Below the pieces are notes generated by a model. That model had not been told where the DNA came from. It made no database searches and saw only the letters and a list, made by a program, of their open reading frames with translations. The position numbers were made by a program, and so were the translations under genes. This document shows, piece after piece, positions 2-16,699 of a stretch of DNA of 64,000 nt. The stretch lies in the NCBI GenBank assembly GCA_964634935.1, contig CAZWJT010000003.1:52323-116322 (forward strand), given 5' to 3'. This DNA comes from an uncultured Planctomycetia bacterium (GTDB taxonomy: Bacteria; Omnitrophota; Gorgyraeia; Duberdicusellales; Duberdicusellaceae). The number at the start of each line of letters is the position of its first letter. Within the stretch, counting starts at the first letter, position 1.

Positions 2-784
2 ATGAATTGTACCGTCTCCACCGGATGTACCGCCGGAACGGATTCACTAGGGTTTTCCTATGAGTTGATCCGCGACGGTAAACAGGATATTATTATTGCC
101 GGAGCTACCGAGGCGCCGGTATGCCCAATCACATTTGGGGCTTTTGATGTTGTTAACGTTTTGGCCAAGAATAACGATGATCCCCATAAGGCAAGTCGGC
201 CATTTGACAATAAGCGCAATGGGTTTGTTATCTCTGAAGCCGCTGGTATTTTGATACTCGAAGAACTTGAACATGCGAAGAAAAGAAAAGCGAAAATTTA
301 TGGAGAGATTGTTGGCTACGGAACAAGTTGTAACGCATACCACATGACCGATCTTCCCGAAGATGGAGAAGCGATGGAACGGTGCATCAATGATGCCATC
401 GTGGATGCCAAGATTGAGAAAGAAGAGATTGATTATATTAATGCCCATGGTTCCTCTACCCGCCAGAACGATGTTTTTGAAACAAACGCGTATAAGGCGG
501 TTTTTGGAAAGCATGCTTATGCCGTTCCTATCAGTTCCGTGAAATCTATGATTGGACATCCTTTGGCCGCCGCGAACGCCGTGGAGAGCGTACTCTGTGC
601 AATGATCTTTCAACGCGGATATCTTCCGCCCACCATTAATCAGGAGGAGTCAGATCCAAAATGTGATTTAGACTATATCCCGAATGTAAAGCGGGAGGGA
701 AGGCCGCGATATATTTTAAAGACAAGCAGTGGTTTTTCAGGCATTCATTCCTCAATCATCTTTAAACGATGGGAGTGCGTATGA
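2..784 (+). CDS. beta-ketoacyl synthase, KS-alpha-like (5' end outside window)
   Basis: C-terminal two thirds of a KAS I/II fold: GCTAGTDSLG, catalytic His motifs INAHGSST and KSMIGHPLAAANAVE; ORF open at window start; stop overlaps next start (ATGA at 781-784). Confidence 0.85.
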   Translation: MNCTVSTGCTAGTDSLGFSYELIRDGKQDIIIAGATEAPVCPITFGAFDVVNVLAKNNDDPHKASRPFDNKRNGFVISEAAGILILEELEHAKKRKAKIYGEIVGYGTSCNAYHMTDLPEDGEAMERCINDAIVDAKIEKEEIDYINAHGSSTRQNDVFETNAYKAVFGKHAYAVPISSVKSMIGHPLAAANAVESVLCAMIFQRGYLPPTINQEESDPKCDLDYIPNVKREGRPRYILKTSSGFSGIHSSIIFKRWECV

Positions 785-2016
785 ACGAACGAGTTGCCAT
801 AACCGGGATGGGGGTAGTTTCGCCCGCTGGTTTAAAAAAAGAAACTGTCTGGGCAAATTTAAAGCGGGGCAGTTCTTTTGTCGATGAGATTACGAGATTT
901 GATGCAACACTTTATCCTTCCCGGATAGCAGGGCAAGTGCATGAGTTGGACTGTTATTCACATCTGCCCAGCCGGCTGGTGAAAAAGATAGATGTATTTT
1001 CGCATCTGGCTTTAGTGGCGAGCGAACAAGCGTTGCAGGATGCCCGCTTAGACCTTGAGGGAATCGATAAGCGCAGAGTGGGAGCTTTTATGGGAAACGC
1101 TTTGGGCGGCTGGCTTTTTGCTGAGACAGAATTGCGCGATCTTTACATTGAGGGCCGTGAGGGTGTGTCTCCATATATGGCATCCGCGTGGTTTGCCGCT
1201 GCCCCACAAGGGCAAATTACGATTTACTATGGGTTTAAGGGATACAGTAAGACAATAGTGGCGGACCGGGCGTCTTCCGCTTTTGCGATCTGGTATGGAG
1301 CCAGGGTTATCCAGGAAAATAAGAATGATTATGTCCTTGCCGGTGGCATGGAGGCGCCAATTACTCCTTATGCTCTGCTCTGTGCAAACACATGCGGTAA
1401 TCTTTCCAAGAACAACCTTACTCCCAAAAAGGCTTATAAACCCTATGATCTGTACCGAGACGGCTTTGTGTTGGCAGAAGGGGCCGGGATTGTTATGTTA
1501 GAGAAAGAAAGTCATGCTAGTGCCCGCAAGGCGCGGAGTTACGGATATATTTCCGGGGTTGGTTTTTCTTCCGACGGACACCACTATATGCGTCCAAGTC
1601 TTTCTTCCGATGCCCTGGAATATGCGATTGAGGAATGTTTGCGAGATTCCGGATGGAACAAAAAGGACATAGATTATATCTGTTTGGATGGAGAGGCAAC
1701 TCCTTTGGGTGATCTGGTGGAGACCAAGGCATTAAAGGCTGTTTTTGGGAAAGAGTTGAGTCACATTGCGTTAAGCGCCCCAAAGAGCATGTATGGGAAT
1801 CTTTTGGGAGCTCAGGCAGCGTTGGATTTAATCACCACGGTTCTTTCCATGAACAACAGTCTTGTGTTGCCCACGGTGAATTACGAAATGCCAGATCCGG
1901 ATTGTGATTTAGATTATACTCCGCTTAAGGCCCGCGAGAAGAAAATTCAGAAATCGTTGATTCTTACGCGCGGTCGTGGCGGAATAAATGTTGTTCTCGC
2001 TCTTGAGCGCGATTAG
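781..2016 (+). CDS. ketosynthase paralog lacking active-site Cys (chain-length-factor / KS-beta-like)
   Basis: Full-length KS fold (ITGMGVVSPAG N-terminus) but the position aligned to TACSS reads DRASS, no Cys; translationally coupled to the upstream KS; start moved to ATG 781 (GGGAG RBS) rather than 769. Confidence 0.72.
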   Translation: MNERVAITGMGVVSPAGLKKETVWANLKRGSSFVDEITRFDATLYPSRIAGQVHELDCYSHLPSRLVKKIDVFSHLALVASEQALQDARLDLEGIDKRRVGAFMGNALGGWLFAETELRDLYIEGREGVSPYMASAWFAAAPQGQITIYYGFKGYSKTIVADRASSAFAIWYGARVIQENKNDYVLAGGMEAPITPYALLCANTCGNLSKNNLTPKKAYKPYDLYRDGFVLAEGAGIVMLEKESHASARKARSYGYISGVGFSSDGHHYMRPSLSSDALEYAIEECLRDSGWNKKDIDYICLDGEATPLGDLVETKALKAVFGKELSHIALSAPKSMYGNLLGAQAALDLITTVLSMNNSLVLPTVNYEMPDPDCDLDYTPLKAREKKIQKSLILTRGRGGINVVLALERD

Positions 2017-2038
2017 AAGTTTGAAAAAGGAGGAAGGT

Positions 2039-2272
2039 ATGGATTTACGCGATGAAGTACTGCAGAAAATTTGCGAGACTCTGGATGTTGATGAAAAAGA
2101 GCTTACCGTGGACAAAAAACTTTACGATTCTATCGGTGTTGATTCAACGGAAATGGTCGAACTCACCGTTGCTTTAAGTAAGCATTTCGGAGTACAGATT
2201 GCGGCCCATGAAATGACTAAGTTTTCAACCCCCCTTGATATTATTGCGCTGATTGGGAAAAAGAGAGCTTAA
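2039..2272 (+). CDS. acyl carrier protein
   Basis: 78 aa, DSIGVDSTEMVEL phosphopantetheine-attachment Ser motif; AAGGAGGAAGG RBS 5 nt upstream of ATG 2039 (ORF-track start 1988 lacks RBS). Confidence 0.8.
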   Translation: MDLRDEVLQKICETLDVDEKELTVDKKLYDSIGVDSTEMVELTVALSKHFGVQIAAHEMTKFSTPLDIIALIGKKRA

Positions 2273-2275
2273 TCG

Positions 2276-3091
2276 ATGACTTTGATTGACTTAAGTCTTC
2301 CGATCGACGAAAAAGCCTTTGAGGTGCACAAAGTTGAGGTTGAGCGTATTTCGCATGGCGATGGAGTTGAGAAATTCAATCGAGTTATCATGGGGAAAAC
2401 TTTTCAAGGGAAACTGGCTTATTGGTTTGGCAAACGCATTATTCAGAAAAAAGATTTACCTGACGGCGAGTTTCTTTCGTTAGAAATCGTGCATGCCCCT
2501 GTGCACGTTGGCACGCATTTAGACTATACATTTCATTACGGTTCCTCTTCAGAAGAGCGGCCGTCAAAAACAGCTGAAGAGATTCCGCTGGAATGGTGCT
2601 ATCAGAGCGGCGTAAAACTCGATTTTACCCACAAAAAGCCGCAAGAGGTCATTACTGCAGGAGATGTGAAGGCAGCGCTTGAAAAGATCCGGTATACACT
2701 CCGGGATTTTGATATCGTTCTTTTTCATACCGGCGCCAGCGCTCTCTATGGCAGCCCAAGGTATTTTTCTGATTACCCAGGGGTTGATATAACTGCTATT
2801 GATTATCTGCTTGACCGGGGTGTTAAAATTTTTGGCGTTGATACGATGGGTATTGACCGGCCTTACAAATTTATGCTGGGAGAGTTTTTGAAGACGAAGG
2901 ATCCAAAACGATTTTATCCCGCTCATTTCTATGGTCGGAAGCGGGCATTCATCCATATTGAGCGCTTGGCATGTTTGGAAAAACTTCCCAGCTTTGGTTT
3001 CAAGATCATTTGTTTTCCGATCAAGATCAAATGTACGGGAGCTGCCTGGGCTCGCGTGGTGGCGCTCTGTGACTCTTCGGCGTGTCTGTAA
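2276..3091 (+). CDS. cyclase-family protein (kynurenine-formamidase-like 'putative cyclase')
   Basis: HAPVHVGTHLDYTFH = HxGTHxD metal-binding motif of the cyclase family; located directly after KS/CLF/ACP. Confidence 0.7.
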   Translation: MTLIDLSLPIDEKAFEVHKVEVERISHGDGVEKFNRVIMGKTFQGKLAYWFGKRIIQKKDLPDGEFLSLEIVHAPVHVGTHLDYTFHYGSSSEERPSKTAEEIPLEWCYQSGVKLDFTHKKPQEVITAGDVKAALEKIRYTLRDFDIVLFHTGASALYGSPRYFSDYPGVDITAIDYLLDRGVKIFGVDTMGIDRPYKFMLGEFLKTKDPKRFYPAHFYGRKRAFIHIERLACLEKLPSFGFKIICFPIKIKCTGAAWARVVALCDSSACL

Positions 3092-3118: not shown

Positions 3119-3559
3119 ATGGCTCATACCGTTAATAGAATCGTGATCGATGCGCCCTATGAAAAAGTATTTGCGATGAGCAACGATATTGCTCGCTGGA
3201 AGGATTTTTTTGATGAATATACTGCGTCCGAAGTGCTTTCTCATGAGGGGAACAAGATTCTTTTTAAGCTTACTCATACCAATGGTACCAGTTGGCAATC
3301 CTACCGCCTGCTTTTTCCCGAAGAAAGATTTACCTATGCCGAACGGCTTACTCCCTTGTTCCCTTTTGCGTATATGAAAATTATCTGGCTGTATCGCCAA
3401 ACTTCCTCGGGAGTTGAGATGACCTGGATCCAAGATTTTACAATGGACAAGCAGGCTAAGTTTACGGATACGCAAGTAGAGGAAATGATGAACAAACATT
3501 CCGGAGAAAATCTGAAACGTTTCAAAGAAATTATCGAGAAAGAGGCGAAAGCGCCATAA
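3119..3559 (+). CDS. SRPBCC-superfamily polyketide cyclase/dehydrase-like protein
   Basis: 146 aa, N-terminus IVIDAPYEKVFAMSNDIARWKDFF typical of Polyketide_cyc2/START fold; strong RBS AAGGAGGAAAAAG upstream. Confidence 0.6.
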   Translation: MAHTVNRIVIDAPYEKVFAMSNDIARWKDFFDEYTASEVLSHEGNKILFKLTHTNGTSWQSYRLLFPEERFTYAERLTPLFPFAYMKIIWLYRQTSSGVEMTWIQDFTMDKQAKFTDTQVEEMMNKHSGENLKRFKEIIEKEAKAP

Positions 3560-4686
3560 TGAAAAAAAGCACTTTTCTTCTTCTCTGTATTGAAGGAGCG
3601 GTGTTGTCTTTTAATGTAGCAGCCTGCGTCGCGCTTATCCCCCAGATTGCGTCAACGTTCCAAGTCGAGCAATTCATCGCGGGCAGACTGACCTGGATTT
3701 ATATGCTTCCTTACGGTGTTGCCGCCTTGGTTTATGGTCCGCTGATTCGGATTGTTGACGCAAAAAAAGTAGAGTGTATTTGTATTCTGTTTTTTGCGTG
3801 CAGTAATTTTTTTGCAGCAACCTCCCAGACAATCGAAGCCCTTTTTATCTCTCGGTTTTTCATGGGCTTGTCCGGTGCGTCGGTTATCCCTCTCGGACTT
3901 ATCCTTATTGCTCAGGAAGTAAAGTCGAGAGAGCGAGGGAAGTATGTCGGCTTTTTTTTCAGCGCGACATTTATCGCTTCATTAATTGGTCTTGTGTTAA
4001 GCGGTTTTGTTCCATGGAGAAATCTTTTCCTTATCCCCGCAGTTTCTGGATTTCTACTCTTTTTTGGCATGGTTTCCTGGTTACCAAATTTTGGCGTACT
4101 ACCGGGACAAAAGGTATTCCGCTATTGGCAGAGCTTTCAGCACAAAGGAGTTCGTCTGGTGTTTTTCTATATTTTTTTTATCAGCATGTTTTACCATGGA
4201 GTTCAGCAATGGCTCGGAGTATATTTTTCGCAGGGATACCTTTTCAATCAAATGACAATCAGCTTACTTGTGACCTTAACGAGTTTTAGCGGTATATTTG
4301 GTGAGGCCATTGGAGGGTATCTCTCCGATCTTATCGGCCGGATACCGACGATTAATCTTGGTATTCTCTGCATGATCGCTGGACTTGTTCTTTTACTGGT
4401 ACGCTTGCCGCTTTTTCTGCTTATACTTCCGATGCTCTTGTGGGGTTTTGGCTGGACGTTGAATCACGCCGGCGTTTCTACTGTGCTTACGGATCTACCC
4501 GGAAATCTTGTCCATGAGGCGGCAAGCCTTAACAGCGGTATTCGATTTTTGTCTGGAGGTATTGGTACGGTTATTGGCGGAATTATTTTACAGAAGAGTT
4601 TTTCACTGGGTTTTCTTCTGTTTGGCGTATGCTTGTTGTTCTTATATATGGCGCACGACCATTTTTTACGCATTCAAAAGGCATAA
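3559..4686 (+). CDS. MFS-type membrane transporter
   Basis: 375 aa, about 10-12 hydrophobic helices, Gly-rich inter-helix loops; ATGA overlap with previous gene. Confidence 0.5.
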   Translation: MKKSTFLLLCIEGAVLSFNVAACVALIPQIASTFQVEQFIAGRLTWIYMLPYGVAALVYGPLIRIVDAKKVECICILFFACSNFFAATSQTIEALFISRFFMGLSGASVIPLGLILIAQEVKSRERGKYVGFFFSATFIASLIGLVLSGFVPWRNLFLIPAVSGFLLFFGMVSWLPNFGVLPGQKVFRYWQSFQHKGVRLVFFYIFFISMFYHGVQQWLGVYFSQGYLFNQMTISLLVTLTSFSGIFGEAIGGYLSDLIGRIPTINLGILCMIAGLVLLLVRLPLFLLILPMLLWGFGWTLNHAGVSTVLTDLPGNLVHEAASLNSGIRFLSGGIGTVIGGIILQKSFSLGFLLFGVCLLFLYMAHDHFLRIQKA

Positions 4687-4704: not shown

Positions 4705-5478
4705 ATGGATGAATTACGAGGGAAAGTAGCGATTGTTACCGGAGCAAGCCGCGGCATCGGTAAAGCGCTCGCGTCGACTGCCGCGAGTCTTGGTATTACC
4801 CTAAGTATTGCCGCGCGGCAGGAAAGTCCTCTTCGGGATACCGCAGAAGAAATTTCCAAAAAACATAAGGTGAAAGTGCTTCCTGTTGTCTGCGATGTGA
4901 CCAAGCTTGAGGACTTGGAAAACCTGGTTGCTAAAACCAAAGCAGAGTTCGGCAGGGTTGACATTTTAATCAATAATGCCGGCGTATCAAGCCAATACCC
5001 GTTTCCTCAGCAGCCCCTTGCTGATTTTGAGAAGCTTGCCCACACGAACTATTTAGGATATGTGCGCCTGATCCGTTTAGTTATTGAAGAGATGATTGAG
5101 AGAAAATCTGGCGCGATTATTAATATGGTTTCTGGTTCAACGCTTTGTGATCCTGTTCCCAGGAATTTTATTGTGTATAGCTCTCTCAAAGTGGGTTTAC
5201 GCGCTTTCAGCAAAGGGTTATTCTGGGAATTGCGCGACTGCGGTATCAAAGTAACTTCCATTCTACCTGGGGTTACCGATACGGATCTTACGGGAAAATT
5301 GCAAGAAATAACGGCTGATACAAGCCGTTTGATGACTACAGAAGCGATTGAGAATGCGCTTCGTTTTGCATTGACTGTTCCGGCAAATGTTTGTCCTCTC
5401 GAGATTGCGGTTATTAATCAGCAGACACCTTGGACAAAGCCGGTTATTCCTTATACACAGGCGCATCCAAAACAATAA
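4705..5478 (+). CDS. SDR-family oxidoreductase (ketoreductase-like)
   Basis: TGASRGIGKA Rossmann motif, NNAG, YSSLK catalytic YxxxK. Confidence 0.85.
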   Translation: MDELRGKVAIVTGASRGIGKALASTAASLGITLSIAARQESPLRDTAEEISKKHKVKVLPVVCDVTKLEDLENLVAKTKAEFGRVDILINNAGVSSQYPFPQQPLADFEKLAHTNYLGYVRLIRLVIEEMIERKSGAIINMVSGSTLCDPVPRNFIVYSSLKVGLRAFSKGLFWELRDCGIKVTSILPGVTDTDLTGKLQEITADTSRLMTTEAIENALRFALTVPANVCPLEIAVINQQTPWTKPVIPYTQAHPKQ

Positions 5479-5505
5479 CCAGTTATTCCGAAAATGGAGG
5501 AAGAA

Positions 5506-6966
5506 ATGAAAATTCTATTTGTCATGCCAAAAGTCGGTGCCTGGGCTACTCATGGACAACATCGGGCTCCAAATCAGCTCTACGCACAGTGGGCAGCCTA
5601 TGTGCGAGAAAAAGGATACGATAATCTGGAAGTGCTTGATTGTCGAGCTTTAAATATTTCTCCAGAAGAAATGGTTGAGAAGGTAAAAGCAGCAAAGCCA
5701 ACGATTGTAGTTCTCGGTGACATGCTCCATTCGTACGGCGGCTACGCGATTGTTTGGTATTTTAACGATACTGCGCGGCGAATCAAACAAGCGCTCCCCC
5801 AGGTAACCATTATTATGGGCGGATTATGGTATTCAGCAACACCGCAACAGACTATGGAGGAGAATCCGGCGGTTGACTTTGTGGTTATGGGCGAAGAGGA
5901 ATCATTCTATGATCTGCTTGCGGCTTTGGACAAAAAGAAGAACCTGAAAGATGTGGCAGGGGTGAGCTCCCGGATAGAAGGAAAAGTTTTTCTGGGCCCT
6001 CATAAACCGCTGCTTATGGATTTGAATAGTTTACCGCTTCCAGCTTATGATTTATTCCCGATGGATACTTACGTGGGACACACTCACTGGAAGCCGTTTG
6101 TAGAAATGGTGACTTCCCGGGGTTGCCCTTCTGCGTGTACATTTTGCTACGAATGGGATCAATACGACCCGCGTCATCCGGAAGACTTTCTTAAGTGGCG
6201 GGCTAAATCTCCAGAGCGCGTGATCGAAGAGCTCGAATTACTCCACAAAAAATTCGGCACAAAAGTGGTTGTTATTCAAGATGACAACTTTAACGTAGAT
6301 GCGAAAAGAGTCGAGCGCTTCTGTTTGTTGAAGAAAGAAAAAAATAATCCGATTAAATGGGTTTCGCTCGGTCGGGCGGTTGATTGGATTAACTGTGAAC
6401 AGATTTTGCCACTGATGAAAGAAACAGGCTTATTCACTGGTGTGTTTGGTATTGAAGTTACCACCGAGGAAGAGTTAAAGAAGATTGCAAAAGGGATTAC
6501 CATCGCCCAAATCAAGAAAACCGTAGAAATTTTACGAAAGAATAATGTTGCGGTTGTCGCTGATATCATGATGGGGTTTGACTACGACAATGAACAAATC
6601 ATTAAGCAACGTTTTGAATTTACCGATGAAGTCGATCCAGACATCCTTTGGATTGGGTATGTTACGCCAGCCCCGAATTCTCCAATGTGGAGGATTGGCC
6701 TGAAGAAGGGGTGGATTGATCCGAAGAAGATCGATTTTCTGAAATGGGATTTTTTACATCCAGTAACCCCGACCGACTACCTCTCAACCGAAGATTTGGG
6801 CAGGCTTGGGGCGTGGTGTATGCGGGAATTTTTCTCAAAGCCGGGGAGAATCCAAAGGATTATGACCAGCAATTTTGATCCGCTGGCAAAACTTTGTTTC
6901 CAGGATGTTATGCAGGGAGTGAGCGCCTGGGAAGAAGGAGCAGTCAAAGGAAAAAAACATATCTAG
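5506..6966 (+). CDS. B12-binding-domain radical SAM enzyme
   Basis: N-terminal cobalamin-binding-like domain followed by CPSACTFC (CxxxCxxC) radical SAM cluster motif; GGAGGA RBS favours ATG 5506 over 5494. Confidence 0.8.
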   Translation: MKILFVMPKVGAWATHGQHRAPNQLYAQWAAYVREKGYDNLEVLDCRALNISPEEMVEKVKAAKPTIVVLGDMLHSYGGYAIVWYFNDTARRIKQALPQVTIIMGGLWYSATPQQTMEENPAVDFVVMGEEESFYDLLAALDKKKNLKDVAGVSSRIEGKVFLGPHKPLLMDLNSLPLPAYDLFPMDTYVGHTHWKPFVEMVTSRGCPSACTFCYEWDQYDPRHPEDFLKWRAKSPERVIEELELLHKKFGTKVVVIQDDNFNVDAKRVERFCLLKKEKNNPIKWVSLGRAVDWINCEQILPLMKETGLFTGVFGIEVTTEEELKKIAKGITIAQIKKTVEILRKNNVAVVADIMMGFDYDNEQIIKQRFEFTDEVDPDILWIGYVTPAPNSPMWRIGLKKGWIDPKKIDFLKWDFLHPVTPTDYLSTEDLGRLGAWCMREFFSKPGRIQRIMTSNFDPLAKLCFQDVMQGVSAWEEGAVKGKKHI

Positions 6967-7003: not shown

Positions 7004-7918
7004 ATGATTTGTGATTTTCACATACATTTTATTCCTCAGGTTATCGCTGAGCACACATCTTTCTTCCGGGGTGTTTGGTCGGATAAAGCCAGGCTCCTTG
7101 ATTTTTTACGGACGAATAACATCGGGAAAGCTCATCTTGTGTATCCGGCGACGGATGCCCATAGAACACTTGGGGCTGTTGAACTTTGTAAAATTTATAA
7201 CGAAGAGGTGCTGCGCTTTGCCTGCGAAACCGGGGGAGTCGTTCTTCCTTCCGGTATTGTGGATGTTTCACAGGGCGAAGATAAAATTATTTCTGCCATT
7301 GACGAACTCAAGAAGCAAGGTTTTCGAAGCATCTCGCTCGCATCGAGCTATGAAGGGAAATACATCACGGAAAAATTAAAGCTTATTTGTCGCAGGATAG
7401 CCGAACACAACCTTACGCTTTTTGTACATCCCCAGGTTGCCAATCCTGTCGGATTTGATCGGGTACAAGATCCATTGCTCATGCCGGTTCTGGAATATAG
7501 TTTCGATGTTTCCTTGTGTTTTGGCTTATGTATGGTTTCAGGCATTTTTTCCGAAGAACAGAATCCGAAAATAGTTTTTTCTTCGTTAGGCGGAGTCATT
7601 CCATTCTTGCGTGATCGTTTCGACAGCGTCTATATGATGCTCCGCGGCCGGAATATGGTTGAGGATCTAGGAGCGCTTCCTTCGCAGCTCTTAAAGAAAG
7701 CGTATATCGATATTGCGGGCGTGCAGTCTCGCGATATCCTGGCATGTGCGCTCAATCTTTTTTCCGAGGACCACATTCTGTTTGCTTCGGATTATCCAGC
7801 TCAACAAAATATCATGGGCCAGCTGGAGTCTTTCTCTGGACTTTCTCAGGTCGCGCGCGAGAAAATATTAAGCAGAAATTTCTTAAAGTTATTATGCGAT
7901 GATGAAGCTGTACTCTAA
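7004..7918 (+). CDS. amidohydrolase-2 family TIM-barrel metal-dependent hydrolase/decarboxylase
   Basis: N-terminal CDFHIHFIP metal-ligand motif typical of amidohydrolase_2 (ACMSD-like) proteins; about 300 aa. Confidence 0.5.
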   Translation: MICDFHIHFIPQVIAEHTSFFRGVWSDKARLLDFLRTNNIGKAHLVYPATDAHRTLGAVELCKIYNEEVLRFACETGGVVLPSGIVDVSQGEDKIISAIDELKKQGFRSISLASSYEGKYITEKLKLICRRIAEHNLTLFVHPQVANPVGFDRVQDPLLMPVLEYSFDVSLCFGLCMVSGIFSEEQNPKIVFSSLGGVIPFLRDRFDSVYMMLRGRNMVEDLGALPSQLLKKAYIDIAGVQSRDILACALNLFSEDHILFASDYPAQQNIMGQLESFSGLSQVAREKILSRNFLKLLCDDEAVL

Positions 7919-8723
7919 CGGATCTTTTTCCTCCGAAGGCAACCCTAAAGAGCTGCTGGAACCAGGTTTTTTGTTTGGTTGGGGAGTTTTTGAAACCATC
8001 CGCGTTTATCAGCGAAAGCCAGCTTTTCTTTCCGAGCATGTTCAGCGTTTGGAAAAAAGTTGTCGTAAGTTATTCTTGGAGTTTCCTGATTGTTGTATTC
8101 CCTCGATTTTGGAAAAGCTGCTTGATGAAAATCAGCTCGACGACGCGTATTGCCGGGTTACTGTCTATAAAAGACGGGAAGGGGCGGGTATCCTTATTCA
8201 TGTTGCCCCGTTCGCCTATTATCAATCCGGTGAATCTGACCAGGGAGTAAGCGCAGTTATCGCGCCTTTTCGCAGATACTCGGCAAATCCATTCTTAGGG
8301 CTTAAATTGATCAGCTATTGCGAGAACCGGATTGCTTGGAGAATCGCCCAGGATAAAAAGGCTGAAGAGGCACTGATGCTCAACGAGAATGATTTTCTGA
8401 CAGGAGGATCCCGGAGCAGCATATTCTTTGTCAAAGATGGGGTATTATGTACGCCATCTCTTGCCTGCGGGGTATTCCCCGGAATTACCCGGGAGCGCGT
8501 ATTGGCGATCAGTAAAAGAATCGGGCTCTTTTGTAAAGAAGGAGAATTTAAGCCCGAAGATTTAACGAAGGCCCAGGAAGTATTTCTTACGAGTTCTTTG
8601 ATGGAAATTATGCCTCTGGTGTATATCCAAGGCTGCGCTTTTACAGCAAAAAACCCAGGTATTTGGACAAAAAAACTACACTCTTTATATTTGGAAGAAA
8701 TAAACAATGCCCACGCAGTTTAG
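7899..8723 (+). CDS. class IV aminotransferase-fold protein, aminodeoxychorismate-lyase-like
   Basis: 274 aa, GxGVFETIRV N-terminal motif and overall length typical of PabC/ADC lyase rather than BCAT. Confidence 0.6.
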   Translation: MMKLYSNGSFSSEGNPKELLEPGFLFGWGVFETIRVYQRKPAFLSEHVQRLEKSCRKLFLEFPDCCIPSILEKLLDENQLDDAYCRVTVYKRREGAGILIHVAPFAYYQSGESDQGVSAVIAPFRRYSANPFLGLKLISYCENRIAWRIAQDKKAEEALMLNENDFLTGGSRSSIFFVKDGVLCTPSLACGVFPGITRERVLAISKRIGLFCKEGEFKPEDLTKAQEVFLTSSLMEIMPLVYIQGCAFTAKNPGIWTKKLHSLYLEEINNAHAV

Positions 8724-9615
8724 AAGCCCGCTTTTATTTCCGGTTTCAATGAGTCAGGGGATCATCAAGGTGCTTGATGAAACCAAGCTGCCTTTTATCG
8801 AAGAGTACACATGTGTTAAAACCCTTTCTGAGGCTCTGACAGTGCTTGGTTCGATGAAAACTCGTTCCTTGGGACAAGTTCTTCTTTTTTTCTATGCGTG
8901 CGTTGTGCTTGCTGACGCTGATGCGCGGAAGATCGCGCAAGAATTTCATGCAACGCGTCCGACTTTTGACTTTATGACTCTTGCGGAAATTCTTGAGCAA
9001 ATTGAACAAAAGACAAAAAGCCGCCAGAAAGCAGTAGAGTTATTCCTGCACAAGTTCGATCAAGCACGCAAGACGCGGGCGGAGCGGCTTGCCTTTAAAT
9101 TACCAAATCCAGCGAAAGTTTTGACAATTTGCAATATTAACGGAGAGCTGCTCTACCTCGAGCAGGCATTGCGTGCCCAAGGAAAAGAATCCATTTTTTA
9201 TGTTGCAGAAACCAGACCATACTTGCAGGGTAGTCGGCTTTCTTTCTGGGAACTTACGAAAGCTTGCGTTCCTTGTCGTCTTCTCTGCGATAACCAAATT
9301 GCCTGGTGTATGAAGGAGAAAATGGTAAATTGTGTTGTGAGTGGTGCGGACCGAGCCTCCCGGCAAGGCGGAATTGTGAATAAAACCGGGACCTATGCTC
9401 TTGCCGTACTCAGTAAGCATTTTGGCATTCCCTTTTACGCATTCACTCAGTATCCCAAGGATATTGATATCAGTAAGGTGGAAATCGAGGAACGCAACAG
9501 CGAGGAGATTTTTATGTTTTGTGGGGATCTCAAAGTTTCCGATGGGATCTATCCCGCGTTCGATATCATTCCGGGTGAATACGTTACCGAACAGATAATT
9601 CTGGAGGGATTATGA
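8707..9615 (+). CDS. eIF-2B/MtnA-family sugar-phosphate isomerase (methylthioribose-1-P / 5-deoxyribose-1-P isomerase-like)
   Basis: VSGADRASRQGGIVNKTGTYALAVLSKHFGIPFYAF and PAFDIIP C-terminal signature of MtnA/eIF2B family. Confidence 0.75.
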   Translation: MPTQFRSPLLFPVSMSQGIIKVLDETKLPFIEEYTCVKTLSEALTVLGSMKTRSLGQVLLFFYACVVLADADARKIAQEFHATRPTFDFMTLAEILEQIEQKTKSRQKAVELFLHKFDQARKTRAERLAFKLPNPAKVLTICNINGELLYLEQALRAQGKESIFYVAETRPYLQGSRLSFWELTKACVPCRLLCDNQIAWCMKEKMVNCVVSGADRASRQGGIVNKTGTYALAVLSKHFGIPFYAFTQYPKDIDISKVEIEERNSEEIFMFCGDLKVSDGIYPAFDIIPGEYVTEQIILEGL

Positions 9616-10088
9616 AACTAAGAGATCTTCATAATGGAATTATTATTTGGGGCGTGCCCGGGGAAGAGTTATTCCTTTTTTTGGAAACTTGTTCTGGCCT
9701 CTGCATTCTTCCGGAGATGCGCCCTTCCGGTATTGGATTACGGATTAATAGAGAGATATGCAACATCCGGAATATCCCATTCTGCGTTTGTACCGACAAC
9801 ATGCTTGGTAATCTTTTCTTTCAGAAAAAAATAAAGCAGGTAGTCGTGTTTTCTATGAAGGAGGAGAAAGAAAATATTGTTTGTTTTCCGGGTACATTTA
9901 CCCTTTTGATGCTGGCAAGATTGCATTCCGTTCCAGTGAAATTGCTTCCGGCAGGATTGTTTCAAAAAGATGTCCTTATCGATAAAGATGCGCAGACTAT
10001 TTCCGGCAAGCCTCTGGTAGAACAATTGAAGCAGGAGTTTCTTTTTTCTCAGGAATCTGAGATAATATCCCGAAAGGAGTTTGCATGA
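9612..10088 (+). CDS. degenerate eIF-2B/MtnA-like C-terminal domain protein
   Basis: 158 aa; VVVFSMKEEKENIVCFPGTFTLLMLARLHSVPV aligns by eye to the VVVSGADRA...GTYALAVLSKHFGIPF block of the upstream gene but lacks the Asp; ATGA-coupled. Confidence 0.35.
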   Translation: MKLRDLHNGIIIWGVPGEELFLFLETCSGLCILPEMRPSGIGLRINREICNIRNIPFCVCTDNMLGNLFFQKKIKQVVVFSMKEEKENIVCFPGTFTLLMLARLHSVPVKLLPAGLFQKDVLIDKDAQTISGKPLVEQLKQEFLFSQESEIISRKEFA

Positions 10089-11074
10089 AGTTTTCCGAGC
10101 AAAGGAAAGAGTTTATTTTCTGGGCAAAACTTTTAAATGAAAGAGGTTTTGTCACTGCCCGCAGCGGCAATATTTCGTATCGGGTGGGCTCAAATGAATT
10201 GTTAATAACGTCGCACAATAGTTATTTAGGGAGTTTAGCCAACGAGGATATTCTGCTTACGGATATATCCGGAAATCTTCTGGAGGGTCAAGGTGAACCA
10301 ACTTCAGAAAAAGAATTGCACCTTACCCTCTACAGGGTTTTTCCGGATACCCAGGTTGTGTTGCATGCCCATTCCCCTTTTTCTACGGCGTTTTTCTACT
10401 ACCATAAACTTCTTCCTGTATTTTCATTCGAAGCAGAGTTTTATCTCGGGAAAATTCCGGTTGTCGACCAAATAACTCCCACTGTGACAGAACTTACTCC
10501 GGTGCTACAGGCTTTCGGAAAAAATAATATCATTGTATTACGCCGCCATGGGGTTGTAGCAAAAGGGTCAACGTTTCGGGAGGCATTTTCGCTCATTGAG
10601 CTCTTGGAAGAGCAAGCCCGAGTCGGGTTGATGATTTATGCCAGCCGTTCTGGCGTTTTTCCTGATTCATCTCAACCGGCTCAGCAGAGAGAGAAAAAAA
10701 CCTATGTATTATTATCGCAGGAACATATCCAGAAGCTCACGGAGATCATTAATTCGGACAGCGAAGCGCAAGCGCTGGGGAGAAAGTATAATTTAACCAT
10801 GACGTTTGCGATTAAGAATCAGGATACCGGGCAGAGCGCCGGGTTTACCTATGACCAAGGTAAGATTACCAAGACTAGCAGTGGAGAGGATGCCGAGTTT
10901 ATGATTATTGGTTCGGCTGATATTCTGCGCAAAGTATTTAATAGAGAATTAGATCCATTCGTCGCACTCACGCAGGGTAAGGTTCGGTCAAAAGGCGATT
11001 TTTCTAAGATGAGCAAGTGGTATCCAGTGATGGTGCGGACATTCCAGCTTTGGGAACAAGCGCCAGTCGAATAG
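10085..11074 (+). CDS. class II aldolase/adducin-family protein fused to a C-terminal SCP2 sterol-carrier-like domain
   Basis: N-terminal RSGNISYRV...HAHSPFSTAF (MtnB/FucA-type zinc aldolase fold); C-terminal about 110 aa with GKVRSKGDFSKMSKW typical of SCP2. Confidence 0.7.
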   Translation: MKFSEQRKEFIFWAKLLNERGFVTARSGNISYRVGSNELLITSHNSYLGSLANEDILLTDISGNLLEGQGEPTSEKELHLTLYRVFPDTQVVLHAHSPFSTAFFYYHKLLPVFSFEAEFYLGKIPVVDQITPTVTELTPVLQAFGKNNIIVLRRHGVVAKGSTFREAFSLIELLEEQARVGLMIYASRSGVFPDSSQPAQQREKKTYVLLSQEHIQKLTEIINSDSEAQALGRKYNLTMTFAIKNQDTGQSAGFTYDQGKITKTSSGEDAEFMIIGSADILRKVFNRELDPFVALTQGKVRSKGDFSKMSKWYPVMVRTFQLWEQAPVE

Positions 11075-11092: not shown

Positions 11093-12529
11093 ATGCGCGA
11101 ATATAAATACTATATGGAAGGAAGATTCTTGGGTTCTTCCGAGAAGAGTCTCGTTTTCGACCCATTCTTAGAAGAACCTTTTGCCGAAATTTCTTACACG
11201 CAGATTTCTCAACTGTCGCAGGCTGTGTTTTGTGCGCGTGAAGCTTATCGGCTGTGGTCAAAAAGGTCTTTTGCCGAACGGGCAAAATTATTGAAGGATA
11301 TTGCTCAGATCATTCTCGAGAATCTCCGTGAGCTTGCAGAACTCGAAACAAAAGAAATCGGAAAACCCTTGAAAGAAAGCCTTTTTGTCGATATTCCCCT
11401 CGCCGCCGAAGTTTTTTCTTATTATGCTTCTTTTTTAGAGCGGCTTGAGGAACGCACTCAGCAAACCGGAAGCACGATCGACATTTTTGAATATAAACCA
11501 TACGGCGTATGCGGGATTTATCTGCCGTATAACGTTCCATTAATGATTTTTGGTTTTACTGCGGCTGCGGCGCTTGCCGCCGGAAATGCAGTCATCATCA
11601 AACCTTCAGAATATGCGTCGTTGTCTCTGCTGCGCCTTACGGAATTACTGGATTTGCTTTCTCTTCCTAAGGGGCTTATTCAAGTGGTGACTGGGAGGGG
11701 CGATGAACTTGGACATGCGTTTGCCGAACAGGATATAGATCTTATTTCTTTTACCGGCTCGCGGGAAACATTGGGAAAGGTTGTCGCGGCGTCAGCAAAA
11801 AATCCTAAAAAGATTATCTGCGAACTCGGCGGGGCTAATTGTACTGTTGTATTTCAAGACGCCGATCTTCTCGAAGCGGAACAGAATATTTTAGGTTCGT
11901 CATTCATGAAACAAGGGCAAATTTGTATTGGGACAAGCATCGCCCTAGTTGAAGAAAATATCTATGATTCATTTGTCCCCCGCCTTGTTGAAAAAACAAA
12001 GAAAATTACCCTGGGCAATCCCTTTGAGCCGGCTGTGGGTTTAGGTCCTCTTGTTTCACAACAGCACCGCAGCAATGTTGAACAAAAGGTTGCGCAACTT
12101 CTCAAAACGCAAGGAAAACTTCTCTGCGGAGGCGTGATCCCGAGACAAAAAGGCTATTTTTATCCAGCTACAATTATTGAATTATCCAGCATGCTCTACG
12201 AAGAGTTTTTCGCTCCAGTTCTACTTGTTTATAAATTCAAAGATTACAACGAAGCGCTCAAAATCGTTTCCCAGAATCCTACAGGGCTTGTTTGTCAAAT
12301 CTGGACAAAAGACCTGGAGAAAGCGCGAACGTTTGCTTCAAGTGCTGAAGCCGGGACTGTCTGGATTAATACCTTTGCCCAAATGTCCGCAAAAACACCT
12401 TTTGGTGGTTTTCGGCAGAGTGGTTTTGGCCGGAATTTGGGGGAGGAAGGATTTTTTGAATATGTGCAAACCAAACATACCGGGATTGGATTTGACAAGA
12501 GTCCAGTTTCTGGCTGGTTCGGGTTATGA
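11093..12529 (+). CDS. NAD(P)-dependent aldehyde dehydrogenase
   Basis: ALDH family: ELGGANCTVV (catalytic Cys region), FTGSRETG, GQICIGTS. Confidence 0.85.
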   Translation: MREYKYYMEGRFLGSSEKSLVFDPFLEEPFAEISYTQISQLSQAVFCAREAYRLWSKRSFAERAKLLKDIAQIILENLRELAELETKEIGKPLKESLFVDIPLAAEVFSYYASFLERLEERTQQTGSTIDIFEYKPYGVCGIYLPYNVPLMIFGFTAAAALAAGNAVIIKPSEYASLSLLRLTELLDLLSLPKGLIQVVTGRGDELGHAFAEQDIDLISFTGSRETLGKVVAASAKNPKKIICELGGANCTVVFQDADLLEAEQNILGSSFMKQGQICIGTSIALVEENIYDSFVPRLVEKTKKITLGNPFEPAVGLGPLVSQQHRSNVEQKVAQLLKTQGKLLCGGVIPRQKGYFYPATIIELSSMLYEEFFAPVLLVYKFKDYNEALKIVSQNPTGLVCQIWTKDLEKARTFASSAEAGTVWINTFAQMSAKTPFGGFRQSGFGRNLGEEGFFEYVQTKHTGIGFDKSPVSGWFGL

Positions 12530-12586
12530 GCGAAAAGAGTTGACAAGATAAGATTATTTCATAAAATCTATACTACTTTCTCATAT

Positions 12587-12735: not shown

Positions 12736-12873
12736 GACCTCCCGGTGGTGGTTGAGTTCGTTGATACCGAAGAAAACCTTGCCAAACTAATGCCATTTCT
12801 TGATCAAGTCGTTGATGGGGGATTGGGTACGCTTGAAAAAGTCAGGATAGTCAAATATCGACATGCCCAGTAA
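12736..12873 (+). pseudogene. remnant of a DUF190 (PII-like, CrcB-associated) gene: C-terminal about 45 codons only
   Basis: Frame translates DLPVVVEFVDTEENLAKLMPFLDQVVDGGLGTLEKVRIVKYRHAQ*, matching the conserved C-terminus of DUF190 proteins; in-frame stop immediately upstream, no start codon. Confidence 0.5.
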
Positions 12874-13366
12874 CCGCTATTCAAAGAAATCCGTGTGTAC
12901 TTTGTTGGCGAACCACAGATGTATTCTTATTATTTTTTTCCTTTTGTGGAGCGGCTGCCATTCGAGCCACACTTCTTCAGGGAGAGTATGCTTTGGAAAG
13001 AATTGTTTTGTAGTCGAGGTTGCCTCTACGAGTCGTGATCGCGCTCAAGGGCTTATGTTCCGTTCCAGTCTTCCGGAAAATCGTGGCATGCTTTTTGTTT
13101 TTCCCCGCGAAAGCCACCAGGGTTTCTGGATGAAAAATATGAAACTACCACTGGATATTATCTGGCTTGATAGCCAGAAGCGGGTAGTTTCTCTTACTGA
13201 AAATGCTCAACCTTGTTTGGAGAGCGATTGTCCTTCTTTTTATCCGGAGAAGAAAATTCGATATGTTTTGGAAATAAGTTCTGGAATGGCACAAAAGAAA
13301 GGTATTTCCGTGGGGAAAAGCGCTCAGTTCCTGAATATAAAAAATATTGGAAAAAATTCCGAGTAG
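12863..13366 (+). CDS. DUF192-domain protein, probable lipoprotein
   Basis: GLMFRSSLPENRGMLFVFP...MKNMKLPLDIIWLD DUF192 core; N-terminal hydrophobic segment ending LLWSGC (lipobox-like). Confidence 0.6.
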   Translation: MPSNRYSKKSVCTLLANHRCILIIFFLLWSGCHSSHTSSGRVCFGKNCFVVEVASTSRDRAQGLMFRSSLPENRGMLFVFPRESHQGFWMKNMKLPLDIIWLDSQKRVVSLTENAQPCLESDCPSFYPEKKIRYVLEISSGMAQKKGISVGKSAQFLNIKNIGKNSE

Positions 13367-13401
13367 GTATATAATAAAAAACTGATTTTAGAAAGATTGC
13401 G

Positions 13402-13779
13402 ATGAAAAAGGAAAGGGTAAAAACGCTTGAAGAACGTCGGAAATTTCCACGTTTGGATACTTCGGTCGATGTTTCATACTCGTTGCTCGATCGGGTCCCT
13501 AAAAAAGCGACTACTTCAAAAAATATCAGCGCCGGCGGCATTTGTCTTATCGTTTATGAGGATGTTCAGTTAGGCGCTGGAATGTCACTTTTAATTAAAA
13601 TACCAGATGAGCCGGATCAGATTCACGTCAAAGGGAAAGTTGTCTGGAAGAACGAATTTAGCGTAAGCACGGATACGCGAAAGCGATACGAACTGGGGAT
13701 TGAGTTTTCCGAAATGGGAATTTTTGATCAAGAAAGATTGCAGCAGCATATTTTTACGTTTCTTCGGAAAAAACCCTGA
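13402..13779 (+). CDS. stand-alone PilZ-domain (c-di-GMP-binding) protein
   Basis: RRKFPRLD (RxxxR) and NISAGGICL (D/NxSxxG) PilZ motifs. Confidence 0.7.
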   Translation: MKKERVKTLEERRKFPRLDTSVDVSYSLLDRVPKKATTSKNISAGGICLIVYEDVQLGAGMSLLIKIPDEPDQIHVKGKVVWKNEFSVSTDTRKRYELGIEFSEMGIFDQERLQQHIFTFLRKKP

Positions 13780-13811
13780 CGATTCGATTTTCCCATCCTC
13801 TTCAAACGTAC

Positions 13812-14945
13812 ATGGCGGATAAAGTAATAACATTGGCAGGCAAGCCGCGAAAAACCACGCTCTATGATCAACATAGATTGTGTGGCGCGAAGATCGTGGA
13901 TTTTCATGGATGGCTTATGCCGGTTGAATATACCGGCATTCTTGAAGAGGCGAAGGCTGTGCGTTCGACCTGCGGTTTGTTTGATATTTCGCACATGGGG
14001 ACAATAGAAGTACGCGGGGCGGAAGCGTGTCGGTATTTACAGTATATTCTTTCAAACGATATTGCGCAGATCGAAGATGGGCAAGTCCAATATAATCTTT
14101 TTTGTGATGCAGATGGCGGGATTATCGACGACTTGATGGTTACCCGTGTATCCGATAAGTTTTTTTGCGTTGTGAACGCTTCAAACAGTAAAGAAGATTT
14201 TTCCTGGATGCTCAAAAACAAGACGGGATTTGATGTGGAGATTATTGATCAAAGCCAAAAGCGGTCTTTCCTTGCATTACAAGGGCCTTTAGCCGAAGTT
14301 ATTTTGAAGCAGTCTCTCAATATCGACGTTCACGGTTTACCGTATATGCATGCGATGGAATGTTCTTGGCAGGGAGCAAAGATTTTTCTTTCTCGCACCG
14401 GATATACCGGGGAAGATGGGTTCGAGTTTTTTGTGGATCATGCTTCTGCTCAAAAGATTTGGGAAATTCTTTTAAGTTTCCAAAGGCGTTCGGAATTAAA
14501 ATTATGCGGTTTGGGGGCGAGAGATATCCTACGACTCGAAATGGGATATACACTTTATGGGAATGAAATCAGTCTTTCCACGAATCCATTTGAAGCCGGC
14601 CTAGGGTGGGCTGTGGCGATGAAGAAAGGAGCGTTTATCGGCCAGGGTGCGCTCTCTTGTATTTTGAAAAAAGGTTTATCCCGGAAGAGAATCGGATTTT
14701 TTATGGAGGAGCGCGGGATGCCCCGGCAAGGGTATCCTTTTGTATCTGATAGTGGTCTTGCGATCGGGACGGTAACGAGCGGCGGTTTTTCTCCAAATCT
14801 TAATAATTTTATTGGCATGGGATATATTGCAAATGAACACCTGCAAAATAATCAGGAAATTTTTGTCTCAATACGCCAGAAAAATCATCAGATCAAAATA
14901 CGCCAACTGCCTTTCTGGGCTGCTCGTACCAGGCATCACGGGTAG
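13812..14945 (+). CDS. gcvT: glycine cleavage system T protein (aminomethyltransferase)
   Basis: Full-length GcvT fold (HMGTIEVRG, TGYTGEDGFE), first of gcvT-H-PA-PB order. Confidence 0.9.
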   Translation: MADKVITLAGKPRKTTLYDQHRLCGAKIVDFHGWLMPVEYTGILEEAKAVRSTCGLFDISHMGTIEVRGAEACRYLQYILSNDIAQIEDGQVQYNLFCDADGGIIDDLMVTRVSDKFFCVVNASNSKEDFSWMLKNKTGFDVEIIDQSQKRSFLALQGPLAEVILKQSLNIDVHGLPYMHAMECSWQGAKIFLSRTGYTGEDGFEFFVDHASAQKIWEILLSFQRRSELKLCGLGARDILRLEMGYTLYGNEISLSTNPFEAGLGWAVAMKKGAFIGQGALSCILKKGLSRKRIGFFMEERGMPRQGYPFVSDSGLAIGTVTSGGFSPNLNNFIGMGYIANEHLQNNQEIFVSIRQKNHQIKIRQLPFWAARTRHHG

Positions 14946-14982
14946 AGAAGGCTTTTTGAAAGAGAATTGAGAAGGAGGATGT

Positions 14983-16697: not shown

Positions 16698-16699
16698 TT

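Follow-up and report, generated by a model that had tools for sequence, protein, structure and literature searches.

Most characterised class B radical S-adenosylmethionine (SAM) enzymes, in which a Rossmann-type cobalamin-binding domain precedes the radical SAM core, are methyltransferases. BchE does the work of an oxygenase without O2 and consumes several SAM per product, while AprD4 is a 1,2-diol dehydratase of apramycin biosynthesis. Among polyketide pathways, the Photorhabdus anthraquinone (Ant) cluster is a non-actinobacterial type II polyketide synthase (PKS). A gene for a cobalamin-type radical SAM enzyme, hereafter rSAM, lies among PKS-like genes in the 64,000-nucleotide stretch of DNA analysed here (the window), positions 52,323 to 116,322 of contig CAZWJT010000003.1 (GenBank assembly GCA_964634935.1), from an uncultured bacterium that GTDB places in the Omnitrophota. 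Genes resembling the dihydroxyacetone phosphate (DHAP) shunt, which is established for 5'-deoxyadenosine (PMC6079011), follow it downstream.

The analysis places rSAM at the join of an operon that spans about 18 kb and has three parts. Its genes overlap or are separated by gaps of a few bases, and it is found throughout the Omnitrophota and, outside them, in at least one genome of the Thermodesulfobacteriota. The parts are a PKS block, rSAM with a PCP_red-like partner, and a block predicted to lead from nucleoside to aldehyde to acid (Table 1). The reading favoured here, to which about an even chance is given, is that rSAM is a dedicated O2-independent radical tailoring enzyme whose operon has the salvage of 5'-deoxyadenosine built in.

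The open reading frame that contains rSAM runs from 5494 to 6966, and residues are numbered in its 490-residue frame. The preferred coding sequence encodes 486 residues from the ATG at 5506, because a GGAGG Shine-Dalgarno sequence at 5496-5500 stands 5 nt upstream of this ATG and because nearly all homologues have 485-486 residues and an N-terminus of MKILF or MQILF. The initial annotation had described a cobalamin-binding-like N-terminal domain followed by a CPSACTFC cluster motif, and the Pfam search bore this out, with PF02310 (B12-binding) matching residues 34-138 at 44.7 bits (cut-off 32.1) and PF04055 (Radical_SAM) matching residues 205-375 at 81.3 bits (cut-off 29.5). The motif corresponds to C211-x3-C215-x2-C218, and none of the three cysteines varies in an alignment of 40 sequences with identities down to 26%. 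An AlphaFold2 model computed from this alignment had a mean predicted local distance difference test score (pLDDT) of 94.0 and a predicted template modelling score (pTM) of 0.92. When the model was compared with the PDB using Foldseek, the top 17 matches were all B12-type radical SAM enzymes, namely AprD4, CysS, TsrM, MgmA, OxsB and TokK, and the N-terminal domain also aligns by sequence with those of TokK, CysS and OxsB. With the CxxxCxxC motif, the PF04055 match and the fold of the superfamily, and with the cobalamin-binding type of domain placed before the core, rSAM is a genuine cobalamin-type radical SAM enzyme of class B architecture. The motif and the predicted fold show it to be competent for reductive SAM cleavage.

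Family identity was judged by NCBIfam equivalog cut-offs, none of which was reached by rSAM. The top curated profile, BchE (TIGR02026), matched residues 7-435 with 185.5 bits where 481 are required, and HpnJ (TIGR03471) missed its cut-off with 144.1 against 577.6 bits. The other profiles were ApyD (111 bits, cut-off 750), the P-methyltransferases (101-108 bits, cut-offs 575-600; PhpK 101 against 600, Sden_1168 108 against 575), HpnR (96, cut-off 650), BzaD (94, cut-off 450), the C-methyltransferases of ribosomally synthesised and post-translationally modified peptides (87, cut-off 282), the ladderane-type TIGR04072 (74.7, cut-off 360), KedN5 (71, cut-off 700), AprD4 NF033070 (64, cut-off 500) and the glutamine C-methyltransferase of methyl-coenzyme M reductase (59, cut-off 360). 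Like rSAM, BchE comes from an anaerobe and carries a B12-type domain at the N-terminus, ahead of its radical SAM core; it is a plausible model for oxidation or ring closure without O2. It differs in its tetrapyrrole context and DUF4070 tail, as Pfam finds no DUF4070 domain in rSAM, which stands instead in an operon with ketosynthase (KS) and acyl carrier protein (ACP) genes and a shunt-like module. No tetrapyrrole or hopanoid genes were found in more than 90 inspected loci, nor any squalene-hopene cyclase or hpn genes in the loci examined.

The nearest solved structure is AprD4 (PDB 6fd2), both by sequence (E = 1.5e-12) and by fold (TM scores 0.71/0.76). AprD4 resembles rSAM in size and three-domain layout, yet the identity is only about 19-20%, the match is limited to the radical SAM core and the C-terminus (residues 169-440), and the rSAM locus has neither the aminoglycoside context nor the AprD3 partner. 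The class B methyltransferases CysS, TokK/ThnK and HpnP/HpnR share a common fold with rSAM, and for TokK (residues 87-223) and CysS (102-334) the similarity reaches the cobalamin domain. Their substrates are carrier-bound or lipidic, fitting the ACP pathway of rSAM, but these enzymes are 130-250 residues longer, and their equivalog cut-offs are not approached by rSAM. The identities BchE, HpnJ, ladderane TIGR04072 and AprD4 were ruled out by the curated cut-offs together with gene context.

In an exhaustive HMMER search over 1.84 billion cluster representatives, rSAM matched four close clusters (50, 48, 39 and 38% identity, 571-356 bits), below which the scores drop to a generic B12 radical SAM background of about 260-180 bits. 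Judged by these profiles, rSAM is a discrete, uncharacterised subfamily of cobalamin-type radical SAM enzymes with no named family. Public pipelines label its relatives 'anaerobic magnesium-protoporphyrin IX monomethyl ester cyclase' (JGI) or 'YgiQ', and both labels are similarity artefacts.

When one genome per GTDB species was scanned, at least 600 stretches matched, of which 563 were confirmed, so that relatives of rSAM occur in at least 563 GTDB species, almost all of them Omnitrophota metagenome-assembled genomes (MAGs). The locus counts that follow refer to the 80 best related loci among the matches listed, compared by tBLASTn with the proteins of the locus that contains the window (L004). 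Across these loci the identity of rSAM is 74-84% (median 76%, minimum 74%), which is comparable to the conservation of the housekeeping protein AccA across Omnitrophota (about 68-80%). No other protein of the cluster is so uniformly conserved. The medians of the other cluster proteins range from 36 to 81%: 81% for the short-chain dehydrogenase/reductase (SDR), 76% for the TIGR04076 protein, 72% for the cyclase, 64% for KS-alpha, 40% for the decarboxylase, 37% for the isomerase and 36% for the aldolase. One complete Omnitrophota chromosome that carries the cluster measures only 1.275 Mb, and a close copy (76% identity) lies on a 3.3 Mb Thermodesulfobacteriota contig. Near-identical clusters were also seen in MAGs labelled Methanosarcinales archaeon, Planctomycetia, Pseudomonadota and Patescibacteria (L010, L015, L017-L019, L029, L089 and others); the cluster itself and the identity levels suggest that these contigs are Omnitrophota, mis-binned or mislabelled. 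In MAG CAZOGI01 the cluster is present on two contigs (L073, L077).

The gene association is far above chance. The KS pair is linked to rSAM in 58 of the 59 loci with enough upstream sequence, and the isomerase and aldolase are linked to it in 45 of the 49 with enough downstream sequence, usually accompanied by a homologue of purine nucleoside phosphorylase (PNP), an aldehyde dehydrogenase (ALDH) and an acyl-AMP ligase. Co-occurrence with a KS and chain length factor in related genomes, which the initial annotation had proposed as a check, was therefore found, though the KS partner carries Arg rather than Gln. The placement that it described, with rSAM between the ketoreductase and the amidohydrolase and shunt-like genes downstream, was likewise found in full. 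In this order, type A, rSAM follows the SDR gene. In type B, to which 54 loci belong, that of the Thermodesulfobacteriota among them, rSAM is placed between KS-beta and ACP, and the phosphorylase stands beside the isomerase. In L042 and L076 the block of ligase, phosphorylase, isomerase, aldolase and ALDH has moved upstream as a unit, and in L132, where rSAM is 50% identical, the order is this block, rSAM and then the PKS block. The PKS linkage thus survives three gene orders, down to 50% rSAM identity (L132).

The PKS block comprises the ApbA-type reductase, the double-TIGR04076 protein, KS-alpha, KS-beta, ACP, two cyclase-type proteins, the ketoreductase and the decarboxylase. KS-alpha, an active FabF-like KS of 417 residues in L004, scores 428 bits against the NCBIfam FabF subfamily PRK07314 (cut-off 387) and keeps the active-site Cys (TGCTAG) and both His. 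In an alignment of KS-beta with KS-alpha, this Cys is replaced by Arg and the His of HGSST by Asp, whereas a canonical chain length factor has Gln at the Cys position. From these residues KS-beta is an inactive, chain-length-factor-like partner but no canonical chain length factor, and the usual priming by malonyl decarboxylation would not be possible. The Cys-His-His of KS-alpha and an ACP, as in a minimal type II PKS, are both present; the Gln of the chain length factor is not. The PDB relatives of the PF04199 cyclase are isatin hydrolase and other metal hydrolases. Nearly all PDB relatives of the Amidohydro_2 protein are ACMSD-family decarboxylases, and it is probably a non-oxidative decarboxylase of the ACMSD/LigW/IDCase type. 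The operon resembles the Photorhabdus Ant cluster in having a KS with partner, ACP, ketoreductase, PF04199 cyclase, SRPBCC aromatase-like protein, CoA-ligase-type enzyme and hydrolase or decarboxylase. Also close is the clade with Candidatus Omnitrophica in a published catalogue of KS and chain length factor pairs (PMC10132072). Unlike such systems, the operon has a FabF-like KS and Arg instead of Gln in the KS partner, comes from an anaerobe with a reduced genome, and includes rSAM, an ApbA-type reductase, the TIGR04076 protein, the PCP_red-like protein and the shunt-like block.

The DHAP shunt (MtnP-MtnA-Ald2; DrdK-DrdI-DrdA; PMC6079011) runs from a phosphorylase through an MtnA-like isomerase to a class II aldolase. 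The cluster has members of these enzyme families in the same order, the phosphorylase being a putative one, although all three score below curated cut-offs. The isomerase reaches 144-157 bits against MtnA equivalog cut-offs of 271-279, and the phosphorylase, which matches the Sulfolobus solfataricus methylthioadenosine phosphorylase 1jds at 90 bits, reaches none. The residues expected of the shunt are nevertheless in place: the isomerase keeps the catalytic Cys (TICN) and Asp (GADR) in an alignment to 1t9k, and the aldolase keeps the catalytic Glu and three Zn-binding His (motifs PTSE, HAHSP and RHG). The AlphaFold2 model of the aldolase (pLDDT 88) was matched by Foldseek to FucA and to DrdA 6btd, the 5-deoxyribulose-1-phosphate aldolase (TM score 0.83), and contains a folded C-terminal alpha/beta domain at residues 212-323. 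This domain is assigned to SCP2, a lipid-binding type, from Pfam and from the predicted alpha/beta structure, the Foldseek list being filled by matches to the aldolase domain; the fusion family is small (172 matches) and specific to clusters of this sort. For the ALDH, which belongs to the non-acylating type, the best NCBIfam matches are betaine-, aminobutyr-, phenylacet- and lactaldehyde dehydrogenases. The block differs from the described shunt in the SCP2 domain of the aldolase, in the additional IF-2B-fragment protein, ALDH and acyl-AMP ligase, and in being hard-wired into a biosynthetic operon beside one radical SAM enzyme. Homologues of the IF-2B fragment (152-169 residues) follow the isomerase in L090, L098, L130, L131 and L132, making it a conserved companion of the isomerase and possibly a second subunit. 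With both linkage and catalytic residues in its favour, the proposal that a DHAP-shunt-like module salvages the 5'-deoxyadenosine of rSAM, made in the initial annotation, is a reasonable one.

A 90-residue DUF2621/PCP_red-like protein is the candidate partner of rSAM. Its gene directly follows rSAM in L007, L092 and L132. In L130 (9946-11670; ENA ERZ28669879) rSAM is 574 residues long, and its last 85 or so residues are homologous to this protein (37% identity, E = 8e-18), a fusion which implies that the two proteins work together as physical partners.

On the favoured reading, the PKS block would most plausibly build a lipid-like (phenolic-lipid-like) aromatic polyketide through an acyl starter, a few malonyl extensions, cyclisation and decarboxylation. 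The starter would be loaded by the ligase, since KS-beta lacks the priming Gln; the ketoreductase, the two cyclase-type proteins, the decarboxylase and the exporters fit such a product as well. A [4Fe-4S] cluster on C211, C215 and C218 would cleave SAM reductively, and the resulting 5'-deoxyadenosyl radical would take a hydrogen atom from an unactivated carbon of an acyl or polyketide intermediate. The N-terminal cobalamin-type domain would resolve the substrate radical without O2, leading to methyl transfer or to a BchE-like hydroxyl transfer, oxidation or ring closure; methylation is not preferred over BchE-like oxidation or ring closure, because BchE, HpnJ and AprD4 are not methylases. A BchE-like enzyme in an anaerobe could in this way stand in for the oxygenases that tailor the aromatic polyketides of aerobes. 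A use of several SAM per product, as by BchE, would explain a need for salvage of high capacity. Each turnover would release 5'-deoxyadenosine, which the phosphorylase, isomerase and aldolase would convert to DHAP and acetaldehyde, and ALDH would oxidise acetaldehyde to acetate.

Several observations weigh against this reading. Seven contigs of a sister clade (type C; Omnitrophota by AccA, rSAM 47% identical) have no KS within 10 kb of rSAM, so that the polyketide core is perhaps not the substrate. Their genes encode PadR, a SAM methyltransferase, the ligase, rSAM, phosphorylase, isomerase, fragment, aldolase-SCP2, ALDH, MMPL, LolA-like/DUF1329 and DUF1302 proteins, and the rSAM and phosphorylase genes overlap and show translational coupling. 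Loci of type D (L106-L108 and L110) have an rSAM of 57% identity; in them, ligases, flavoproteins, rSAM, an aldehyde:ferredoxin oxidoreductase and the PKS block are found with no shunt genes within 21 kb, and L092 has the PKS block and two rSAM paralogues with no shunt genes nearby. The shunt-like module is, at the same time, tied to rSAM more tightly than plain salvage requires, and five co-translated genes are many for the disposal of a by-product. The SCP2 domain would be superfluous for simple cleavage of 5-deoxyribulose-1-phosphate. Recycling of acetate is not the obvious job of the ligase, because its pocket motif is WGxTE, compared with WWQTE in acetyl-CoA synthetase, and because the ligase always travels with the phosphorylase; a role as acetate-recycling enzyme was thus left unsupported. 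The use of cobalamin by rSAM is suggested by the Pfam match and the predicted fold, and the B12-like domain of AprD4, its best structural match, binds no cobalamin. Since distant relatives split the parts, rSAM is the shared element, and the links to PKS and shunt genes are both real, neither being absolute. Conserved linkage to non-PKS genes had been named in the initial annotation as grounds for giving up a role in the PKS cluster; the type C contigs do show such linkage, whereas all but one of the loci with enough upstream sequence keep the KS pair. The module as a generic neighbour was mostly rejected, as it stays with rSAM across rearrangements and in loci without PKS, although in L131 it stands by itself.

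A housekeeping enzyme of the BchE or HpnJ type (Mg-protoporphyrin cyclase or hopanoid), or a chance neighbour of the PKS, would agree with the JGI labels of some relatives and with BchE being the top NCBIfam profile. It is barely credible, being refuted by the bit scores far under both thresholds and by gene context: DUF4070 is absent, the tetrapyrrole setting that would have argued for a BchE-like oxidative cyclase was not encountered, and the synteny with the KS pair is kept. A class B C-methyltransferase acting on the polyketide, which would pass the methyl group of methylcobalamin to a substrate radical on the aromatic core or on a side chain and yield S-adenosylhomocysteine and 5'-deoxyadenosine, the latter salvaged by the shunt, accords better with the data. 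Most characterised class B enzymes methylate, the N-terminal sequence is alignable to the genuine cobalamin domains of TokK, CysS and OxsB and not to that of AprD4, CysS, TsrM, MgmA and TokK are among the Foldseek matches, and types A and B have no other C-methyltransferase in the cluster. However, every methyltransferase model scores far under its cut-off and under BchE and HpnJ, AprD4, which ranks first in the PDB in sequence as well as in structure, does not methylate, and type C clusters carry a separate SAM methyltransferase; no gene for handling S-adenosylhomocysteine was found in the rSAM cluster. C-methylation, suggested in the initial annotation, was accordingly not sustained by these comparisons, and it is regarded here as unlikely, if worth keeping in view. 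It is more improbable still, a slim chance, that rSAM tailors a ligase-activated fatty-acyl or lipid unit and not the polyketide core, so that ligase, rSAM and exporters would form the core of a route to an outer-membrane lipid and the tailored unit of PKS clusters would be the starter only. This would suit the type C loci, with their ligase, rSAM, shunt and MMPL, LolA-like/DUF1329 and DUF1302 genes but no nearby KS, the additional MarR, MMPL, DUF1329 and DUF1302 genes of the Thermodesulfobacteriota locus, and the two ligases with a DUF374 acyltransferase-like gene upstream in L110. A KS-beta without the malonyl-priming Gln fits a non-acetate starter, and CysS and TokK use pantetheine-bound substrates according to PDB entry titles. 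On the other side, the type B rSAM gene lies inside the minimal PKS, and the type C enzyme, only 47% identical, may differ in substrate, while its PKS could be elsewhere in the genome.

A different use of SAM would make the shunt-like block biosynthetic. rSAM would attach the 5'-deoxyadenosyl radical to a substrate X, or otherwise make a 5'-substituted 5'-deoxyadenosine, with no hydrogen abstraction; the phosphorylase would then remove adenine, the isomerase would give the ribulose-1-phosphate, the aldolase-SCP2 would release DHAP and X-CH2-CHO, ALDH would oxidise this to X-CH2-COOH, and the acyl-AMP ligase would activate the acid, for example as a PKS starter. The same logic operates in fluoroacetate biosynthesis and in the HpnH/HpnG and MqnE/MqnB pairs. 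As in these systems, a PNP_UDP_1 enzyme accompanies the radical SAM enzyme of the cluster, leaving the chemistry available. The ligase, phosphorylase, isomerase, aldolase and ALDH form a mobile block that describes a linear path from nucleoside to activated acid, in which the non-acylating ALDH sets the flow from aldehyde to acid. The type C loci are essentially the module genes, rSAM and lipid exporters, with rSAM and phosphorylase overlapping. The cluster-specific SCP2 fusion and a ligase pocket unlike that of acetyl-CoA synthetase point the same way. In L131 (8310-12549; JGI 3300013138), isomerase, 164-residue fragment, aldolase-SCP2 and ALDH occur with no rSAM nearby in an arsenic operon, which would fit a 5-substituted ribose such as one from DDMAA, the product of adenosylation by ArsS (PMC13598754). 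Against this, the L131 module without rSAM can act on a general metabolite, some loci with PKS and rSAM have no module nearby, and the DHAP shunt is promiscuous toward the 5-substituent and does not demand a special substrate. The cobalamin-type domain of rSAM would also be left unexplained: HpnH and MqnE lack a B12-type domain, and to our knowledge no adenosylating radical SAM enzyme (HpnH, MqnE, ArsS) has such an N-terminal domain. The similarity of the cluster phosphorylase to HpnG is weak (31 against 187 bits), and neither a fluorinase nor a SalL-type enzyme is present. This account is held to be doubtful, with a probability well short of that of the tailoring reading; the specific form in which the 5'-deoxyadenosyl group of SAM is placed on a lipidic substrate and trimmed to a C2 carboxymethyl unit that feeds a phylum-wide Omnitrophota polyketide or outer-membrane lipid is likewise given a low probability. 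A reverse anabolic route from aldehyde and DHAP to a nucleoside was considered unlikely, as the ALDH is of the non-acylating, irreversible type. Tailoring with built-in salvage remains the favoured reading.

Table 1. Features of the operon and of the rest of the window. Positions are those of the window unless L004, the locus that contains it, is named.
Feature	Position	Strand	Basis or remark
MTAP/DeoD-like phosphorylase (PNP_UDP_1)	L004 1398-2132		just upstream of the window; best PDB relative 1jds
DUF2621/PCP_red-like protein, 90 aa	L004 2147-2419		
Double-TIGR04076 protein, 194 aa	L004 3433-4017		just upstream of the window
KS-alpha, C-terminal part, FabF-like	2..784	+	cut by the window start; Pfam ketoacyl-synt, Ketoacyl-synt_C
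KS-beta	769..2016	+	Pfam KS domains
ACP	2003..2272	+	PP-binding 49.7 bits; gene call L004 6510-6779
PF04199 metal-dependent cyclase/hydrolase	2276..3091	+	Pfam Cyclase 103 bits
SRPBCC/polyketide cyclase-aromatase-like protein	3119..3559	+	Polyketide_cyc and Polyketide_cyc2 above cut-off
Major facilitator superfamily (MFS) transporter	3559..4686	+	MFS_1 121 bits; in 50/80 loci
SDR ketoreductase, FabG-like	4705..5478	+	adh_short 171 bits and KR domain
Cobalamin-type radical SAM enzyme (rSAM)	5506..6966	+	Pfam, NCBIfam, AlphaFold2, Foldseek, synteny
Amidohydro_2 protein	7004..7918	+	Pfam 52 bits
Class IV aminotransferase/aminodeoxychorismate lyase-like protein, accessory	7899..8723	+	Aminotran_4 174 bits; in 17/80 loci
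MtnA-like sugar-1-phosphate isomerase, IF-2B family	8707..9615	+	IF-2B 122 bits
IF-2B-fragment-like protein, 158 aa	9612..10088	+	weak IF-2B/MtnA similarity
Class II (FucA/DrdA-type) aldolase with C-terminal SCP2	10085..11074	+	Aldolase_II 126.5 bits; SCP2 27.4 bits (cut-off 21.3)
Non-acylating NAD(P)+ ALDH, last operon gene	11093..12529	+	Aldedh 442 bits
Near-consensus sigma-70-like promoter	12540-12567		TTGACA, 16 nt, TAAAAT; 11/12 matches; 11 nt past the ALDH stop
DUF192, PilZ, glycine cleavage set (T, H, P1, P2), lipoate-protein ligase-like gene, 297-aa radical SAM protein	12863-19816		
Polysaccharide/nonulosonic-acid locus	20669-59491	+	about 35-40 kb, all genes on this strand

Upstream of KS-alpha, L004 has in order the acyl-AMP ligase, the phosphorylase, the PCP_red-like protein, the ApbA-type reductase and the double-TIGR04076 protein. 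By median identity, the last of these ranks third in conservation among the cluster proteins; it has no Pfam match and no PDB sequence relative, and in the P0121 clade a DUF4440/SnoaL-like protein replaces it. The class IV aminotransferase gene overlaps both the decarboxylase and the isomerase genes; its product reaches no NCBIfam cut-off and, in this lineage, may introduce an amino group. After ALDH no intrinsic terminator was detected, and the operon likely ends at the promoter-like site. In L110 (11477-13342) and L130 (11689-13572) a gene for a tungsten-type aldehyde:ferredoxin oxidoreductase stands directly after rSAM, replacing the shunt-like genes in the former; L130 has the PKS block and rSAM with the oxidoreductase beside its shunt-like genes. 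Each cluster type with shunt-like genes or the oxidoreductase pairs rSAM with an aldehyde-oxidising enzyme. The module of L131 overlaps the end of an SBF/Acr3-type gene in an arsenic-type operon with ArsP, a methyltransferase, thioredoxin and a DsbD-like gene, where, speculatively, it might convert arsenosugar-type 5-substituted riboses (e.g., from DDMAA) to dimethylarsinoylacetate.

Beyond the operon, the 297-residue radical SAM protein near the glycine cleavage genes may be a lipoyl synthase, which would be a further source of 5'-deoxyadenosine. The nonulosonic-acid locus includes genes for a sugar transferase, a DegT aminotransferase, NeuB, two UDP-GlcNAc 2-epimerases, a capsule synthesis protein, a glycerophosphotransferase, two sugar C-methyltransferases (PF08421/PF08484) and an ABC exporter.

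No published description of the cluster or the enzyme was found in the literature searched. The catalogue of KS and chain length factor pairs lists hits from Candidatus Omnitrophica without characterisation (PMC10132072), a survey of biosynthetic gene clusters mentions Omnitrophota (PMC9902471), and a paper on Omnitrophota genomics makes no mention of radical SAM or ketoacyl genes. New here are a DHAP-shunt-like module in fixed association with the enzyme, its PCP_red-like partner, and the phylum-wide conservation at housekeeping level in genome-reduced bacteria.

The rSAM subfamily is a large uncharacterised branch with two unusual fixed partners, the PCP_red-like subunit and the nucleoside-to-acid module. 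If the module serves salvage, the operon would be the clearest case known to us of 5'-deoxyadenosine disposal built into a biosynthetic operon; if it does not, new SAM chemistry would be at hand, and if the adenosyl group is used as a building block, rSAM would be a cobalamin-domain radical SAM 'adenosylase' with SAM as a C2 donor. The cluster is a target for heterologous expression, which could give the first polyketide from the phylum and an instance of oxygen-free polyketide tailoring. Omnitrophota are widespread, uncultured and ultra-small bacteria with reduced genomes. Since rSAM is conserved like acetyl-CoA carboxylase, the product of the operon is likely to be central to Omnitrophota biology, and candidates include a lipid of the membrane or outer membrane, a redox-active aromatic compound and a molecule used against hosts.

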